From contig LCMS01000002.1 in NCBI GenBank assembly GCA_001002765.1, positions 1,454 through 65,453 on the forward strand: a stretch of DNA of 64,000 nt, written 5' to 3'. A program made the position numbers and the translations under genes. This DNA comes from Candidatus Uhrbacteria bacterium GW2011_GWE2_46_68 (GTDB taxonomy: Bacteria; Patescibacteriota; Patescibacteriia; UBA9934; GWF2-40-263). Position 1 is the stretch's first letter, and every line of letters starts with the position of its first letter. Below the pieces are notes generated by a model. The model was not told the origin of the DNA and ran no database searches. It saw nothing but the letters and a program-made list of their open reading frames with translations. This document shows, piece by piece, positions 22,247 through 62,140 of the stretch.

Positions 22247-22524
22247 AACAAAAATATCCGACCAAGGTCAGATATTTTTATGTGGAGCGGGAAACGGGGA
22301 TCTCACCTTTCCATGGGGGAACGTCGTTCCCCCTCTGGAGCCCTGCACCATGTAAGGTGCAGGGCTGTCACCCCTTCCTCCTTTAGAGTCTATCGAGGAA
22401 AACTTCCGTTTTCCTCGAGCTCCTTTCCCTGGGTTCGATTCCCGTTTTTTATTTTCTCCAATTAAAAATATCCGACCAAGGTCAGATATTTTTATGTGGA
22501 GCGGGAAACGGGGATCGAACCCGC
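22246..22524. repeat. Direct duplication of the tRNA-Gly 3' end plus its terminator hairpin (22246-22310 and 22461-22524), flanking a 150-nt hairpin-rich segment
   Basis: About 55 nt repeated exactly: AAAAATATCCGACCAAGGTCAGATATTTTTATGTGGAGCGGGAAACGGGGATC. Confidence 0.75.
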
Positions 22525-22571
22525 GGCCTTCTCCTTGGCAAGGAGACGCTCTACCACTGAGCTACTCCCGC
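22497..22571 (-). tRNA. tRNA-Gly (anticodon GCC)
   Basis: Hand-folded: GCGGGAG acceptor, anticodon loop TTGCCAA, T-loop TTCGATC, CCA encoded. Followed by a hairpin plus T-run terminator. Confidence 0.8.
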
Positions 22572-32060: not shown

Positions 32061-35157
<3,097 letters not shown>

Positions 35158-35222
35158 ACTGAAAGGTTGTATCCTGTATGATTCTTCTTTGTAAGGAATC
35201 TTTTTATTAAAAGGGTTTCAAT

Positions 35223-35338
35223 GTCTCGGTGCCATTTCCAGGAGGGTCACACCTGTTCCCATCCCGAACACAGTCGTTAAGCCTCCTTGGGCCGATGGTA
35301 GTGCGTATGCGCGAGAGTAGGTGGGCGCCGGGACATTG
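35223..35338 (+). rRNA. rrf: 5S ribosomal RNA
   Basis: CCCATCCCGAACACAG...GCCGATGGTAGTG...GCGAGAGTAGG matches 5S conserved blocks. A T-run follows. Confidence 0.85.
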
Positions 35339-53102: not shown

Positions 53103-53563
53103 AGGGGATAGATATGCGATTCGATTTCAGAGAGTTTTTGAAGACGACGTAGGTGGCGTTCTTCTCCACTAAAATCAGTTTGGAGCCAAAGGGTGGTGAT
53201 CTTCAGGACTTCTTGTTTTGAAAGATGTCGGGCAGGAAGGCAGAGAACATTGCTGTCATCGTCGGTTCGACTTGTTTGCGCAACCTGTTCATCAAAACCT
53301 GTTGCCGCACGAATGCCTTTTACTTTGTTTGCCACGATAGAAACTCCTTGGGCATTGGCGCAAAGAAGAATGCCACGTGCCAGGGGGTCGGTAGCGACTC
53401 TTTGAGCCACGGCATAGCTAAAGTCAGGATAATCATCATCCTCGACCAAATGAGCATTACCAAGATCAGTCACTTCAAAACCTTGCGCAATAAGGTCGGT
53501 TTTGAGGGTTTCTTTGTATTCCCATCCCGCATGATCCGCTCCGATATAAAGATGTGGTTTCAT
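53099..53563 (-). CDS. rpiB: Ribose-5-phosphate isomerase B
   Basis: LYIGADHAGWEYK and the RpiB/LacAB fold pattern. Confidence 0.85.
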   Translation of the reverse strand: MKPHLYIGADHAGWEYKETLKTDLIAQGFEVTDLGNAHLVEDDDYPDFSYAVAQRVATDPLARGILLCANAQGVSIVANKVKGIRAATGFDEQVAQTSRTDDDSNVLCLPARHLSKQEVLKITTLWLQTDFSGEERHLRRLQKLSEIESHIYPL

Positions 53564-53585
53564 ATGCGGGTATTATAACAGATGA

Positions 53586-53613
53586 CGGGTGGGTAGGGGC
53601 GAACGGCCGTTCG
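53586..53613. repeat. Perfect palindrome TAGGGGCGAACGG|CCGTTCGCCCCTA (copy 2)
   Basis: Read directly. Intergenic, downstream of the alpha-CTD-like gene. Confidence 0.85.
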
Positions 53614-53679
53614 CCCCTACCACAGATGGATATTGATGGTGTTTTAAAAACAAAAAAACCTCTCTTTTGTCCGCAGACG

Positions 53680-54414
53680 TTAGAGAGGTCGGTCGTATTG
53701 TTCGTGAGCCCTGAGTGCAGTGATCACGAGATCAAGAGGGTAAAGACCCCTGAGATAGAGTGCTGATTTAAGTGCCGCCTTCTTTTTCCCCAGAGCATCG
53801 ACGTGATCGTGGATCTGTTGGACGGTGGGGTTCATGCCATGCTTTTGGAAGAAAAAGCAGATTGCGGAGTGGGTCGTTCCTTCCTGCACATTCACTCCTA
53901 TCCCCAAGCGCAACGCATCGAGAAGTTTTGAAAATGCACTGATTTCATCTACGATTTGACGCAGCCTTTGTTCCAATTGATGTTTGGCACTTTCGAGAAG
54001 TGTTGAAAGTGTTTGCTCATCATTCATGGCGGCTTGCTCCTCTTGAGGTTTTGGTGGGTGAGAGGGTCGGCGCTTCCTTTCATACATCTTCTTTTCCTCG
54101 TTCCAATCCTCAAGGAGAGGCATATCCTTTTTCTCGAGCTCTGCGTTGATGTGAGCTTGGTATTTACGCAAATCCATTCCCAGGCTGAACCGCAATTCAG
54201 CCAGCATTTCTTTGATTTCGTTGAGAGTTTTTTTCCCAAGATTTCGGAGGGAATGGATTTCTTCTTCGGTCCGCGCCACGAGGTGAGCCAGGGTTTCAAT
54301 GGAAGCTTCATAAAGACGGTTTTCAGCTCTCTTACTCCAGTTCAATTCCGTGCATGGCACCAGAAGTCTATCAACAAAATCAGATGCTTCTTCGTTAAGT
54401 GTGGGAAGAGGCAT
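53680..54414 (-). CDS. Stand-alone RNA polymerase alpha-subunit C-terminal-domain (alpha-CTD, HhH)-like protein
   Basis: NWSKRAENRLYEASIETLAHLVARTEEEIHSLRNLGKKTLNEIKEMLAELRFSLGM closely parallels RpoA alpha-CTD ([23 protein letters not shown]). No RpoA N-terminal domain. Start at MPLPTL (54414) with a GGAGA RBS. Confidence 0.6.
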   Translation of the reverse strand: MPLPTLNEEASDFVDRLLVPCTELNWSKRAENRLYEASIETLAHLVARTEEEIHSLRNLGKKTLNEIKEMLAELRFSLGMDLRKYQAHINAELEKKDMPLLEDWNEEKKMYERKRRPSHPPKPQEEQAAMNDEQTLSTLLESAKHQLEQRLRQIVDEISAFSKLLDALRLGIGVNVQEGTTHSAICFFFQKHGMNPTVQQIHDHVDALGKKKAALKSALYLRGLYPLDLVITALRAHEQYDRPL

Positions 54415-54457
54415 GGTTGTCTCCTTCGGGGTTTTTGATGGAAAGAACACGTGTATG

Positions 54458-54485
54458 TAGGGGTGAACGGCCGTTCACCCCTACA
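54458..54485. repeat. Perfect palindrome TAGGGGTGAACGG|CCGTTCACCCCTA (copy 3, with a compensated C>T/G>A change)
   Basis: Read directly. Lies in the divergent region between the alpha-CTD-like gene and ileS. Confidence 0.85.
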
Positions 54486-54588
54486 GGCGATTTTGCCCTC
54501 ATACGTGACCACAATAAAACCAACGCGTCAATCGGTTTGCTCGGCGGCCTACATTTTGGTACCATAAAGCTTACAAAATCATCAAAAT

Positions 54589-57483
54589 ATGGCCGATTCT
54601 CAACCAAATCTCCCGGAGCAGGAAAAAGAAACCCTGGCCTTTTGGGAGAAACAAGAGATTTTTAAAAAGTCTTTGCAAAAAAAAGCCCCAAAGGGCAATT
54701 TTGTTTTTTTTGAAGGTCCGCCTACTGCTAATGGGCGTCCGGGGATCCATCATGCCGAGGCGCGAGCGTTCAAAGACGCCATCCCACGATTCCGTACCAT
54801 GCAAGGTTATCATGTGGGTCGTAAAGGCGGCTGGGATACCCATGGCCTCCCTGTGGAAATTGAAGTGGAAAAGCAATTGGGGTTTAAGAGCAAGGCTGAA
54901 ATTGAAGGTTATGGAGTTGAGGCATTTAATCAACAGTGTCGGGAGAGTGTGTGGAAGTATTTGAATGAATGGATCGAGTTTACCAAGCGTATGGGATATT
55001 GGGTGGATTTGGATGACGCGTATATCACCTACAAACCCGAATATGTGGAGTCTCTCTGGTGGTGTATCAAACAAATTTGGGATAAAGGACTTTTGTATAA
55101 AGATTATCGAGTGACCCCACATTGTCCGCGCTGTGGGACATCGCTTTCTTCCCACGAGTTATCACAAGGATATAAGGATGTGGAGGATCCGGCGATTACG
55201 ATTGCATTTAAAGTGACTTCGAAAGCGGATGGATCAACACCAAGTGAGTCGGAATATCTGGTCGCTTGGACCACCACTCCTTGGACTTTGCCCGGGAATG
55301 TGGCACTCGCTGTGGGAGAAGATGTGGATTATGTGAAGGTGAAGCAAGGAGATAAATATTATTGGCTGGCCAAAGCACGATTGTCTTTTGTGATGAGCGG
55401 AGAGTACGAAGTTGTAGAGGAACAAAAAGGGAAGGTGTTGATCGGTTATGCTTATGAACCTTTATATCCTTTTGTAAAAGATGCGATTGCCGGAACACCG
55501 GAAGGGGAAAAGAAAGCATGGATCGTGGTGGGTGCCGATTTTGTTTCGATTGAGGATGGATCTGGAATTGTGCATACGGCCGTCATGTATGGAGTGGAGG
55601 ATTTTGAACTCGGACAAAAAATAGGACTTCCCAAATATCACATGGTGGATTTGAACGGAAAGTTTGTGAATGGAGCCGGACCCTATGCCGGAAGGTTTGT
55701 AAAAAGTGCGGATGGGGCGATTATGGATGATTTGGAAGCGCGGGGGTTATTGCTTAAACGTGAAAAAATTACTCATACTTATCCATTTTGTTGGCGTTGT
55801 AAGTCACCGGTTATTTATTATGCCAAGGATTCTTGGTATATCAAGATGAGCCAAATGCGTGAAAAATTGATGGCGGAAAACGAAAAAATTCATTGGGAGC
55901 CGGAACATTTGAAAGATGGGAGATTTGGCGAATGGTTGCGTGAGGCAAAAGACTGGGCTTTTTCCCGCGAGCGCTATTGGGGAACCCCGCTTCCTGTCTG
56001 GGAGTGTAATGCTTGCAAGGAACAGATGTGTATGGGGAGTTTTGAAGAGTTGCGTGCGCAAGCAACCACTCCACTTCATGATCCTTTTGATCCTCATCGT
56101 CCGTTTGTGGATCAAGTGGAGGTGAAATGCCAAAAGTGTGGGGGGGTGGCAAAACGCGTGCCCGATGTGATTGACGTATGGTTTGATTCGGGTTGTATGC
56201 CGTTTGCTCAGTGGCATTATCCATTTGAGAACAAAGAAAAGATTGATGAGGGGATTGAGTATCCGGCGGATTTTATCTCCGAGGCGATCGATCAAACCCG
56301 CGGATGGTTTTATACCTTACTTGCCGTGGCTGTATTGCTTGGAAAAGAACGACCGTTTAAGAACGTGATTTGTTTGGGGCATGTCCTTGATGCGGAAGGA
56401 AAAAAGATGAGTAAGTCTTTAGGGAATATAGTAATGCCCATGGAAATGATGGAAAAATACGGAGCCGATGCTGTGCGTTGGTATATGTACACGATCAATC
56501 AACCTGGGGAAGGAAAACGGTTTGATGAAAAAACACTTTCTGAAATGGTCAAAAAGAATTTTACTATTTTGCTTAACGTCATGCGGTTTTACGAGATGTT
56601 TGCCAAGGATGTTCCCACAGCAAATCAAGTAGAGTCGGCTCATATAATGGATCGATGGATTCTCGCACGATTACACGAATTGATCCGCAACAACACAAAA
56701 TGGCTTGAAGAGTACAAGGTACTTGAGCCCGCGCGAGCGATCAGCGAGTTCATCAATGATCTTTCCACCTGGTATGTCCGTCGCAGTCGCGAGCGGTGTA
56801 AGGGGGCAGATGAAGAAAGCGCTTTGGCAGTCGCCACTTTACGCGTGGTTCTTTCCGCACTTTCTAAGCTCATGGCGCCTTTCACTCCTTTTATTGCCGA
56901 AACGGTTTACAAAGCCGTGGATCACACAAAAGAATCTGTCCATCTGGAAGATTGGCCGGTTGTAGATTTGATAAAAATTGATCAAGAACTTTTGGACGAG
57001 ATGGGAAAGGCGCGATCTACTGTTTCAAAAGCCTTAGAAAAACGAGCCGAATCAGGAATCAACGTACGTCAGGTATTGTCGATGATGACAATCACCCGTC
57101 CTTCAGGAGCAATGTCTAATGAGGTTATTGAGGTCGTTAAAGATGAGGTGAATGTCCGTGAGATCAGAATAGAAAAAGGAGAGCATGCCGTTCACCTTGA
57201 CCTCACTCTTACTCCAGAGCTTGTACGGGAAGGGACGGTGCGTGAGGTAATTCGTCGTGTGAATGCGATGCGTAAAGAAGCCAATCTCACGATTGGTGAC
57301 CGTATCATTTTGTTTGTGATAAGCGAGCATCCTGAAGTGAAATTAGCTTTGGAAGAACACAAGGACGCTTTGCTTAGAGGAACACTTGCCAATCAACTTG
57401 GGACACAGGGAGACGCGCCAGAAGGAGCAGAAGCATTCCGCGTGAATGAATATGATATGCAGATAGGGTTTAAAAAAGTGTAA
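54589..57483 (+). CDS. ileS: Isoleucine--tRNA ligase (long, eukaryote/archaea-like type)
   Basis: PPTANGRPGIHH (HIGH-region variant), DWAFSRERYWGTPLP, KMSKSLGN. 964 aa. A terminator follows at 57485-57525. Confidence 0.85.
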   Translation: MADSQPNLPEQEKETLAFWEKQEIFKKSLQKKAPKGNFVFFEGPPTANGRPGIHHAEARAFKDAIPRFRTMQGYHVGRKGGWDTHGLPVEIEVEKQLGFKSKAEIEGYGVEAFNQQCRESVWKYLNEWIEFTKRMGYWVDLDDAYITYKPEYVESLWWCIKQIWDKGLLYKDYRVTPHCPRCGTSLSSHELSQGYKDVEDPAITIAFKVTSKADGSTPSESEYLVAWTTTPWTLPGNVALAVGEDVDYVKVKQGDKYYWLAKARLSFVMSGEYEVVEEQKGKVLIGYAYEPLYPFVKDAIAGTPEGEKKAWIVVGADFVSIEDGSGIVHTAVMYGVEDFELGQKIGLPKYHMVDLNGKFVNGAGPYAGRFVKSADGAIMDDLEARGLLLKREKITHTYPFCWRCKSPVIYYAKDSWYIKMSQMREKLMAENEKIHWEPEHLKDGRFGEWLREAKDWAFSRERYWGTPLPVWECNACKEQMCMGSFEELRAQATTPLHDPFDPHRPFVDQVEVKCQKCGGVAKRVPDVIDVWFDSGCMPFAQWHYPFENKEKIDEGIEYPADFISEAIDQTRGWFYTLLAVAVLLGKERPFKNVICLGHVLDAEGKKMSKSLGNIVMPMEMMEKYGADAVRWYMYTINQPGEGKRFDEKTLSEMVKKNFTILLNVMRFYEMFAKDVPTANQVESAHIMDRWILARLHELIRNNTKWLEEYKVLEPARAISEFINDLSTWYVRRSRERCKGADEESALAVATLRVVLSALSKLMAPFTPFIAETVYKAVDHTKESVHLEDWPVVDLIKIDQELLDEMGKARSTVSKALEKRAESGINVRQVLSMMTITRPSGAMSNEVIEVVKDEVNVREIRIEKGEHAVHLDLTLTPELVREGTVREVIRRVNAMRKEANLTIGDRIILFVISEHPEVKLALEEHKDALLRGTLANQLGTQGDAPEGAEAFRVNEYDMQIGFKKV

Positions 57484-60497: not shown

Positions 60498-61939
<1,442 letters not shown>

Positions 61940-62140
61940 CAATAAAAACCTTGTTAAAAAACAAGGCTCTGCTCATTTGTTTTTTTGTTCGTTGCAATCA
62001 CAGAAAAGACAACATCTTTTTGTGATCGACAGGGAATGTTCTATTGGAAAGATCATACACTTTTCACAATTGAAAACTCATTCGGGATGAAGCCTACGAA
62101 TGAGTTTTTGAAATAAACGAGATTGTGAACAGGTGGCGTA

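Follow-up and report, generated by a model that had tools for sequence, protein, structure and literature searches.

Three palindromes in a Candidatus Uhrbacteria genome as probable double-foot REPs of the RAYT group 4 type

The palindromes present in a 64-kb stretch of Candidatus Uhrbacteria DNA (referred to here as the window) are very probably double-foot REPs (repetitive extragenic palindromes) of the TnpA_REP subclass 2.4 / RAYT group 4 type. Five direct observations carry this assignment: the unit is the same from genome to genome, its boundaries are sharp, it is spread across phyla, it is physically associated with RAYT genes, and orthologous sites in relatives are empty. The transposition chemistry of subclass 2.4, and the enzyme, if any, that would have acted in this genome, are inferred. 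The copies are a further case of a known kind of REP, with a CPR genome as host, and their position around a gene for an RNA polymerase alpha-CTD-like protein looks like an accident of insertion.

A search of the 64-kb window with the 22-nt core, allowing up to three mismatches, returned exactly three matches, against 0.00 expected from 100 shuffles, confirming the existence of the three palindromes described in the original prediction. None of the three is assigned to a strand. Copy A (GTAGGGGCAAGCGGCCGTTCGCCCCTAC, 246–273) is a decayed double-foot REP whose 26-bp palindrome (247–272) carries two mismatches in one arm, in agreement with its earlier description as imperfect; three independent assemblies give the same sequence for this copy. 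The divergent spacer that holds it separates a lipoprotein-like gene (minus strand, start near 51) from the gene of an 823-aa membrane protein (plus strand, start 464). Copy B (GTAGGGGCGAACGGCCGTTCGCCCCTAC, 53593–53620) has the consensus form of the pan-phylum element. This copy is real, but it had been placed at 53586–53613, whereas the sequence TAGGGGCGAACGGCCGTTCGCCCCTA occupies 53594–53619, within a perfect palindrome of 30 bp (53592–53621). Copy C (GTAGGGGTGAACGGCCGTTCACCCCTAC, 54457–54484) represents a symmetric GTG/CAC sub-variant, with the variant core at 54458–54483 and a perfect palindrome at 54456–54485, and occupies the spacer from which the alpha-CTD-like gene and ileS diverge.

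All three copies are intergenic, each lies upstream of at least one gene start, and all are singletons present in low number (three in 64 kb), with no REPIN- or BIME-like pairs. Every copy has the GTAG...CTAC feet and a stem bottom of three G-C pairs (GTAG-GGG...CCC-CTAC). Folded as single-stranded DNA hairpins, copies B, C and A gave energies of −15.2, −13.4 and −8.0 kcal/mol, with z-scores of −5.2, −6.7 and −2.1, respectively. The palindrome had been described as having no loop, which is formally correct; in practice, the central GGCC serves as a tetraloop. A T-run is absent beside all three palindromes, a scan of the whole window against Rfam at the gathering score gave matches to rRNA and tRNA alone and none at the palindromes, and a scan of 53400–54700 for consensus promoters and terminators called nothing at them. 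Assemblies made independently, from NCBI, JGI, ENA and Logan runs, agree exactly in the palindrome sequences. Copies A and C occupy divergent, promoter-containing spacers, a placement that is rare in the family as a whole (5/68).

The narrow pattern TAGGGGYRARCGGCCGYTYRCCCCTA was detected in at least 119 stretches of public genomes. The unit was found in Cyanobacteria, Chloroflexi/Anaerolineae, Nitrospirae, Planctomycetes, WOR-3, Bipolaricaulota, Latescibacterota, Deinococcales, Ignavibacteria and others. It occurs in isolates, including Crocosphaera watsonii WH 8501 and Leptolinea tardivitalis, and in complete isolate genomes, and a looser pattern recovered related forms in viral contigs. The presence of the 28-mer in at least 15 phyla, together with these viral forms, is consistent with horizontal spread of a REP family. 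The consensus form GTAGGGGCGAACGGCCGTTCGCCCCTAC accounts for 88 of the 123 matches listed from other genomes; among the same matches, the 35 non-consensus copies are changed in both arms in 25 cases and in one arm in 10. The GTG/CAC form TAGGGGTGAACGGCCGTTCACCCCTA is a recurring sub-variant, seen nine times in other genomes among the matches listed, and the paired substitution of copy C can therefore no longer be read as a compensated change that arose locally.

The edges of the unit are sharply defined. Among the non-redundant copies listed from other genomes, position −1 is G in 115 of 116 and position +1 is C in 112 of 116. These two flanking bases are counted in the 28-bp unit and are the last conserved ones; beyond them, every position is random in the 116 copies and the flanks are unrelated. 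No target-site duplication was found in these 116 occurrences. When the centre was left free, 28-mers were observed to dominate (56/138). Across 38 distinct centres, the outer three pairs are complementary in 34–35 and the inner two in 25–26, where chance would give 25%, and even the would-be loop positions are self-complementary above chance. The structure thus covaries. As had been proposed, the element behaves as a symmetric hairpin-forming unit. Among the matches listed and with crude ORF calls, 92 of 123 copies fall outside long ORFs, compared with about 20% of random positions. On the same basis, flanking genes are arranged in tandem in 46 cases, convergently in 17 and divergently in 5, and family-wide the copies are mostly downstream of genes, nearer to 3' ends. 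Many of the occurrences in draft genomes are at contig ends, as would be expected of a dispersed repeat.

Clustering of the ORFs at the fetched loci revealed one transposase family, represented at five loci from five different lineages. At three of these loci (L151, L187 and L254), the transposase ORF itself contains the unit, in frame (...VGANGRSPL...); at L149 the unit abuts the 3' end of the ORF, and at L251 a related REP variant is located about 100 nt downstream of the ORF. The transposase ORFs match Pfam Y1_Tnp (PF01797; 1.4e-6 and 1.2e-5) and the NCBIfam model of the REP-associated tyrosine transposase (NF047646; 5e-17 and 3.5e-21), and their motifs NHIH, WQ and YIxNNP identify them as Y1/HUH enzymes of TnpA_REP subclass 2.4 (RAYT group 4). 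The family is large, comprising at least 7996 protein clusters. A REP-coded peptide is present in 94 of the best 120 of these clusters, and wherever both motifs could be located among these 120 the peptide lies between HUH and WQ. No other protein family was found to adjoin the element recurrently in the clusters inspected, in which response regulators/kinases, ABC ATPases and short-chain dehydrogenases are generic neighbors at varying distances. Across the 74 kb covered, comprising the window and a further 10 kb next to it, no RAYT gene was found.

These features correspond to a described group of elements. Subclass 2.4 of TnpA_REP is defined by the motifs NH[IFV]H, WQ and YIxNNP and is scattered across phyla, and its double-foot REPs combine a 5' GT[AG]G and a 3' C[TC]AC with a stem that starts from three G-C pairs (Quentin, Siguier, Chandler & Fichant 2018, BMC Genomics 19:475; PMC6006769). 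In the same study, REP insertions were reported in frame inside tnpA_REP, between HuH and Y, and REPs were noted to occur in genomes without tnpA_REP. The unit matches this definition of a double-foot REP, and comparison with REP/BIME-like elements, proposed in the original prediction, was the right lead. RAYT group 4 is common in Cyanobacteria, Chlorobia and Caldilineae, among 17 classes, and its flanking 16-mers are low-copy, at about 14 per replicon (Bertels, Gallie & Rainey 2017; PMC5581495). The GTAG REPs of Di Nocera et al. (2013), which were defined with an unpaired tag at one end only, were considered as a match and rejected on account of this one-ended tag. The literal strings GTAGGGGCG and CGCCCCTAC are absent from that paper, and in the full-text literature they retrieved unrelated primer sequences alone. 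A small dispersed repeat of cyanobacteria, reportedly described by Elhai et al. in 2008, is a possible match. The literature search for REPs or RAYTs in CPR/Patescibacteria gave nothing relevant.

The palindromes share with subclass 2.4 double-foot REPs the stem bottom of three G-C pairs, a long GC-rich stem, the extragenic location and the low copy number seen in the window, as well as the in-frame occurrence of the unit in RAYT genes and a distribution over many phyla in which Cyanobacteria and Chloroflexi are prominent. They depart from the described members in their CPR/Patescibacteria host, in the lack of a RAYT within 74 kb, and in that two of the three copies are in divergent promoter spacers. 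With the REP, BIME and REPIN elements of E. coli and Pseudomonas (RAYT groups 2 and 3), they have in common GC-rich extragenic hairpins, a 5' GTAG guide, association with a Y1 HUH enzyme and the absence of target duplication. However, classical REPs carry a single unpaired GTAG foot and bulged, imperfect stems, and occur in hundreds of copies, typically as inverted pairs (BIME/REPIN), with sequences specific to a lineage. The present unit has two feet that pair with each other, forms a perfect palindrome, occurs as single copies and hardly changes in sequence from phylum to phylum. The subterminal hairpins of IS200/IS605 are recognized as single-stranded DNA by a related Y1 HUH transposase (TnpA_IS200), as is proposed for the present unit, and their insertion also leaves no target-site duplication. 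Unlike the 28-bp hairpin, which is dispersed alone, these hairpins are the ends of gene-carrying insertion sequences, and the left and right ends differ. Rho-independent terminators are also stable, GC-rich, intergenic stem-loops; the palindromes differ from them in lacking a T-run, in their cross-phylum sequence conservation, and in that one copy comes after a genuine terminator and the other two are in divergent spacers.

The mechanism that would account for these features starts from the symmetry of the unit. Its 28 bp open with the GTAG foot and the GGG at the base of the stem, continue through an inner stem that varies but stays self-complementary, and close with the mirror-image CCC-CTAC. 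Owing to this mirror symmetry (GTAG-GGG...CCC-CTAC), either strand offers an identical hairpin that begins with a 5' GTAG guide. On the model of E. coli TnpA_REP, a Y1/HUH enzyme may recognize the single-stranded DNA hairpin through the GTAG tetranucleotide and the stem base. Hairpin cleavage and strand transfer are known for the E. coli enzyme alone (PMC3479197, PMC8266576), and by extrapolation the recognized hairpins of the present family would be cut and rejoined, and would thereby spread into intergenic DNA without target-site duplication. In Candidatus Uhrbacteria, the copies would be low-density passengers that landed in spacers, two of them by chance on either side of the alpha-CTD-like gene. 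The GTG/CAC change would then be a REP sub-variant that was propagated or corrected as a whole hairpin rather than the product of selection at this locus. Counting against the REP assignment are the failure to find a RAYT gene in the 74 kb covered, the low number of copies and their lack of pairing, the divergent spacers around copies A and C, and filled and empty sites that do not align as clean 28-bp indels.

The alpha-CTD-like gene (53680–54414, minus strand) encodes a protein of 244 aa and is called identically in 19 contigs. As had been proposed, it contains an alpha-CTD-like domain, which is N-terminal (Pfam RNA_pol_A_CTD, PF03118; residues 14–73; E 1.3e-14). Only three protein clusters match the 244-aa protein. 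The two perfect palindromes do flank the gene, copy C being located 42 nt upstream of its ATG and copy B 59 nt downstream of its stop; the gene is a neighbor of the REPs and is outside the element. Between the stop and copy B lies an intrinsic terminator (53646–53690, minus strand), predicted by folding as a stem of 9 bp or more over the stop codon followed by UUUUUUUGUUUUU; in the direction of transcription, it lies 25 nt before copy B. Because the gene has this canonical terminator of its own, copy B is not needed for termination, and the earlier statement that the palindrome, having no T-run, is not a classic intrinsic terminator holds. On the other side of copy B, the start region of rpiB (53561–53580, minus strand), as read from the sequence, comprises an extended −10 element TGTTATAAT (53580–53572), 8 nt and the ATG (53563–53561). 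With a transcription start deduced from this arrangement, the rpiB promoter is putatively leaderless, and copy B would span about −28 to −55 of it, centered near −41.5.

The nearest syntenic relative (L265) retains ileS, the alpha-CTD-like gene (73% identity at the protein level) and rpiB, as well as the terminator and the rpiB promoter. Copy B is missing from the orthologous spacer of this relative, and copy C is missing from its own spacer both in L265 and in a further syntenic relative (L266). The last 29 nt 5' of the rpiB ATG are identical in L265, and the remaining spacer has diverged. The filled and empty sites do not align as clean 28-bp indels, the spacers having diverged further. As the relative keeps the gene without a palindrome at either site, a functional tie between the two is unsupported. 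For the same reason, the idea of the alpha-CTD-like gene as a cassette between REPs that has taken the place of a RAYT was discarded, the gene being in place in the relative without REPs.

The original prediction had linked the palindromes to the alpha-CTD-like gene, as bracketing elements or binding sites. In its general form, this reading has a dimeric DNA-binding protein, possibly the alpha-CTD-like protein itself, use them as operators or recruitment sites and so regulate the alpha-CTD-like gene, ileS and the rpiB operon. The perfect dyad symmetry, the placement of all copies upstream of at least one gene start, the position of copy B near −41.5 of the putative rpiB promoter, and the self-complementarity of the would-be loop positions, a property of double-stranded DNA, would all suit such sites. 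However, the identical 28-mer with unrelated flanks occurs in at least 119 stretches from many phyla in no such gene context and also inside transposase (RAYT) genes, and the closest syntenic relative has gene, terminator and promoter but neither palindrome; absence from relatives is what the original prediction itself had named as contrary evidence. Moreover, the unit avoids divergent promoter regions family-wide, and its inner stem shows free covariation, something that an operator read base by base would not tolerate. The known contacts of alpha-CTD domains are with UP elements, which are A/T-rich, and a GC-rich palindrome would be an ill-suited target; an operator role is highly improbable. 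A mixed scheme, in which the REPs of this ultra-small CPR genome have no resident transposase and were seeded or mobilized in trans, by a host or neighbor RAYT or a phage-borne copy in a groundwater community where the 28-mer is common, and in which copy B, replacing about 100 bp of ancestral DNA at about −41.5, was co-opted as an upstream promoter element of rpiB that the alpha-CTD-like protein might conceivably contact, is very unlikely as a whole.

The elements might instead act mainly as RNA hairpins, either bidirectional terminators or stabilizers of mRNA 5'/3' ends, with incidental conservation of sequence. This possibility is an unlikely one, notwithstanding the very stable folds, the family-wide preference for positions 3' of genes in tandem or convergent spacers, and the known stabilization of upstream mRNA by E. 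coli REPs (PMC3733652). Such a function alone cannot account for an identical, sharp-edged 28-mer across phyla; furthermore, copy B comes after a complete canonical terminator, no transcript should end at copies A and C, each being set in a divergent spacer, and no copy has a T-run or an Rfam match. An RNA-level effect could nevertheless be secondary and co-opted for some copies, which is compatible with the REP explanation. It is improbable, to a greater degree, that the copies are relics of decayed RAYT genes, the in-gene REP having outlived the gene rather than transposed into a spacer. REPs do lie inside most genes of the RAYT clade, and two weak tblastn extensions were obtained, one reading 'FHAFL...SVGASGRSPLH' against the HUH region of the L254 transposase (E 0.005) and one of 62 aa at 26% identity (E 0.011). 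However, similarity beyond the nine REP-coded residues is at chance level, neither the N-terminal motif (YDYS...YFVT) nor the Tyr motifs (WQRNYY, YIxNNP) occur in the matches, one of the weak matches runs over the start of ileS on the opposite strand, the spacers measure only 100–400 nt, and those of the relative are ordinary, with no gene remnants in them. Chance similarity or an assembly or library artefact, which the frequent contig-end positions in draft genomes might suggest, is scarcely credible given that zero matches are expected by chance, that the sequences are identical in independent assemblies and found in complete isolate genomes, and that a dispersed repeat would itself give rise to such contig ends.

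Assignment of the palindromes to double-foot REPs removes a tempting false lead, according to which an orphan RNA polymerase alpha-CTD protein would have a palindromic signal system of its own. The assignment also provides a recognition rule for RAYT group 4 double-foot REPs, namely hairpins of the form GTAGGGG[CT][AG]-N-[CT][AG]CCCCTAC; peptides such as VGANGRSPL and RGERPFAPT in spurious ORFs are marks of the same elements. The finding bears modestly on the study of mobile DNA and has little effect on how the biology of this locus is seen. If confirmed genome-wide, it would extend REP/RAYT-type mobile hairpins to a genome of the Candidate Phyla Radiation. In the adjacent 10 kb, a fourth, decayed copy lies 1.6 kb beyond the window, at the start of a called ORF.

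The window DNA is that of Candidatus Uhrbacteria (CPR; GCA_003506835.1, contig DNYB01000003.1) and was assembled from Rifle groundwater metagenomes too. Direct reading and exact and approximate searches located three GC-rich 28-bp palindromes, here called copies A, B and C. The inner palindromes of copies B and C are TAGGGGCGAACGGCCGTTCGCCCCTA (53594-53619) and TAGGGGTGAACGGCCGTTCACCCCTA (54458-54483), respectively, and the imperfect copy A reads TAGGGGCAAGCGGCCGTTCGCCCCTA (247-272). The palindromes of the original prediction are present, but its coordinates for copy B (53586-53613) began 8 bases and ended 6 bases too early; an inverted-repeat finder returned two perfect palindromes of 30 bp (53592-53621 and 54456-54485). 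With 3 or fewer mismatches allowed, a 22-nt core matches at exactly three sites in the window (46% G+C); 100 dinucleotide-preserving shuffles yielded no match at all. The two perfect copies form single-stranded DNA hairpins of -15.2 and -13.4 kcal/mol, and the imperfect one a hairpin of -8.0 kcal/mol. Their description as symmetric hairpin units is the right interpretation, whereas the reported lack of a loop is only formal, the central GGCC being able to act as a tetraloop.

A fourth, decayed copy, GTGGGGCAAACGGCTGTTTGCCCCTAC, whose foot is GTGG and whose length is less by one base, was located about 1.6 kb left of window position 1, at 8157-8183 of L267 (the stretch with 10 kb left of the window), right where a called 299-aa ORF begins. 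No two of the four copies are the same variant: two are perfect and two decayed, and all are singletons throughout the 74 kb formed by the window and the 10 kb beyond its left end. No gene for a REP-associated tyrosine transposase (RAYT, or TnpA_REP; REP, repetitive extragenic palindrome), nor a convincing remnant of one, was found in these 74 kb. Just beyond the left end of the window, adjoining the REP-bearing spacer, four tandem genes with T4SS_pilin (PF18895) matches occupy L267:6301-7992.

The element is not special to the window locus. A narrow scan (TAGGGGYRARCGGCCGYTYRCCCCTA; one genome per species) returned at least 119 stretches; their sources include isolate or complete genomes and numerous groundwater MAGs, and cover Cyanobacteria, Chloroflexi/Anaerolineae, Nitrospirae, Planctomycetes, WOR-3, Bipolaricaulota, Latescibacterota, Gemmatimonadales, Calditrichaceae, Ignavibacteria, Deinococcales, Wallbacteria and others. 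Among the matches listed, the exact copy-B sequence accounts for 88 of 123 copies and the copy-C variant for 9; the 35 non-consensus copies carry symmetric changes on both arms in 25 cases and a change on one arm only in 10. When the inner positions were left free (TAGGGGYNNNNGGCCNNNNRCCCCTA), a scan of viral contigs gave 21 loci of 38 to 68% G+C, in nearly all of which the free positions are self-complementary and the unit is bounded by G and C. A looser scan, GTAGGGGYR-N4-16-YRCCCCTAC, was dominated by 28-mers (56/138 among the matches listed). The 38 distinct 10-nt centres among the matches listed are complementary at the three outer pairs in 34-35 cases and at the two innermost pairs in 25-26, against 25% expected by chance.

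The boundaries of the unit are sharp. Among 116 non-redundant occurrences in the matches listed, TAGGGG is preceded by G in 115 and CCCCTA is followed by C in 112, whereas positions beyond these are uninformative, with flank-to-flank complementarity at chance level. No target-site duplication of 2-9 bp above expectation was detected in the same 116 occurrences. Because of these sharp edges, uninformative flanks and missing duplications, the element is a discrete unit of 28 bp, GTAG-GGG-(inner stem)-CCC-CTAC, that has inserted into unrelated DNA. Its placement is typical of REP elements: 92 of the 123 copies among the matches listed lie outside long ORFs as called by a crude method, versus about 20% of random positions, and the flanking gene pairs comprise 46 tandem, 17 convergent and 5 divergent ones. 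At eight loci (L149, L150, L190, L193, L213, L240, L165, L191), the TAG of the GTAG foot is, by crude ORF calls, the stop codon of the adjoining ORF on either strand, which suggests insertion at or into gene 3' ends. In several Cyanobacteria (Planktothrix, Okeania and others; L174, L192, L202, L194, L206, L198, L256), the 28-mer sits inside a longer recurring repeat, ...acttacgcaaaacaaccatatctag[REP]cagatggtgtataatt..., suggesting that it is nested in, or the core of, a larger MITE-like element. Another longer repeat, ggcgtgcggcgttcctg[REP]cgaaaacgtcacgcc, is common to a WOR-3 bin and an Anaerolineales bin of one sample, with two nearby copies each in L156 (332, 1017) and L181 (3962, 4133); the explanation may be a bigger composite repeat or mis-binning of contigs between the two.

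Long ORFs of all fetched loci were clustered, and one cluster was found to involve the element physically, at five loci from five lineages (Anaerolineaceae, Syntrophaceae, WOR-3, groundwater Nitrospirae and Wallbacteria). The 28-mer lies in frame within the ORF in three of these, coding VGANGRSPL, and abuts the ORF 3' end in one; the fifth locus has a related REP variant some 100 nt downstream of the ORF. The proteins carry the motifs HRRSIRLxGYDYS...GAYFVT, MPNHIHGI, WQRNYYE and YIANNP, and match Pfam Y1_Tnp as well as the REP-associated tyrosine transposase family of NCBIfam (NF047646), in two stretches that flank the insert. A database search assigned at least 7996 clusters to this family, some named REP element-mobilizing transposase RayT. 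A REP-coded peptide (e.g., VGANGRSPL, VGATGRSPL, VGAHGRAPL, RGDRPVAPT or VGAGLKPAPT) occurs in 94 of the top 120 matches, which are biased toward it since the query held the peptide, and lies between the HUH and WQ motifs wherever both could be located.

TnpA_REP subclass 2.4, equivalent to RAYT group 4 of Bertels et al., is defined by the motifs NH[IFV]H, WQ and YIxNNP, and its REPs are long hairpins with three G-C pairs at the stem bottom; some genomes carry REPs but lack tnpA_REP (Quentin et al., 2018, PMC6006769). Group 4 spans 17 classes, with Cyanobacteria, Chlorobia and Caldilineae as common hosts, and its flanking repeats are low in copy number, about 14 per replicon (Bertels et al., 2017, PMC5581495). 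The window elements share every testable sequence-level feature of double-foot REPs (hairpins with 5' GTAG and 3' CTAC) of subclass 2.4, and are members of this known kind, newly noted in a CPR genome. To our knowledge, only E. coli TnpA_REP has been shown to cut and rejoin single-stranded hairpins by means of a GTAG guide; we infer such chemistry for subclass 2.4.

At the window locus, copies B and C flank a minus-strand gene (53680-54414) for a stand-alone 244-aa alpha-CTD-like protein. It contains an N-terminal RNA_pol_A_CTD domain (residues 14-73, Pfam E 1.3e-14); no second Pfam domain was matched, and the C-terminal ~170 aa are uncharacterised. Only three clusters match among 5.8 billion proteins, itself included, all from groundwater members of this Uhrbacteria lineage. 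The gene is followed on the minus strand by rpiB, rpe and split transketolase genes, with ileS in divergent orientation on the plus strand. Copy C lies 42 nt 5' of its ATG and 104 nt 5' of that of ileS; copy B lies 59 nt beyond its stop codon and 15 nt 5' of an extended -10, TGTTATAAT, which ends 8 nt 5' of the rpiB ATG. No Shine-Dalgarno sequence precedes that ATG (53561-53592, minus strand), and rpiB appears leaderless. A complete intrinsic terminator (53646-53690), a hairpin overlapping the alpha-CTD-like stop codon plus UUUUUUUGUUUUU, precedes copy B. To the left of copy A is a lipoprotein-like gene that reads leftward from near 51, and to its right an 823-aa membrane protein gene that starts at 464.

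The original prediction tied the palindromes to the alpha-CTD-like gene, absence from relatives counting against it, and absence is what was found. Two JGI contigs encode a full-length homologous cluster (73% identity) in the same order, ileS, alpha-CTD, rpiB, and neither carries a GT[AG]GGG...CCC[CT]AC palindrome anywhere. In alignments, the relatives keep the coding ends, TTGACG block and Shine-Dalgarno region upstream of the gene, as well as the terminator and the 29 nt 5' of the rpiB ATG, which include TGTTATAAT and are identical in the syntenic contig L265, whereas the REPs are missing and the surrounding spacer is remodelled. Since gene and signals are kept in relatives without REPs, the gene is older than the REPs here, and the signals for its expression are independent of them; the association is coincidental. 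A role as operator or alpha-CTD binding site is contradicted by these empty orthologous sites, by pan-phylum identity with unrelated flanks and by the freely covarying inner stem.

Neither the sequence identity nor the sharp boundaries can be explained by a role purely as an RNA terminator or stabiliser. Such a role also fits the window copies poorly, since they have no T-run, a real terminator stands ahead of copy B, and divergent genes surround two of them; it may still be a side effect of some copies in other places. That the copies are relics of RAYT genes finds only chance-level support. An artefact is excluded, as independent assemblies (in which copies A, B and C have the same sequence) and isolate genomes carry the palindromes.

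Elsewhere in the window, a direct repeat of about 54 bp (about 22250-22303 and 22464-22517) holds a small palindrome (AAAAATATCCGACC/GGTCAGATATTTTT) and includes the end of a tRNA gene (22500-22571), the first copy being a partial tRNA-end duplicate about 213 bp away; the pair looks like a scar or the att sites of a small integrated element. The 23S and 5S rRNA genes (32063-35333, plus strand) and the 16S gene (60502-61946, minus strand; a 1445-bp match to a 1533-position model) are about 25 kb apart on opposite strands; in CPR genomes, rRNA genes are often unlinked.
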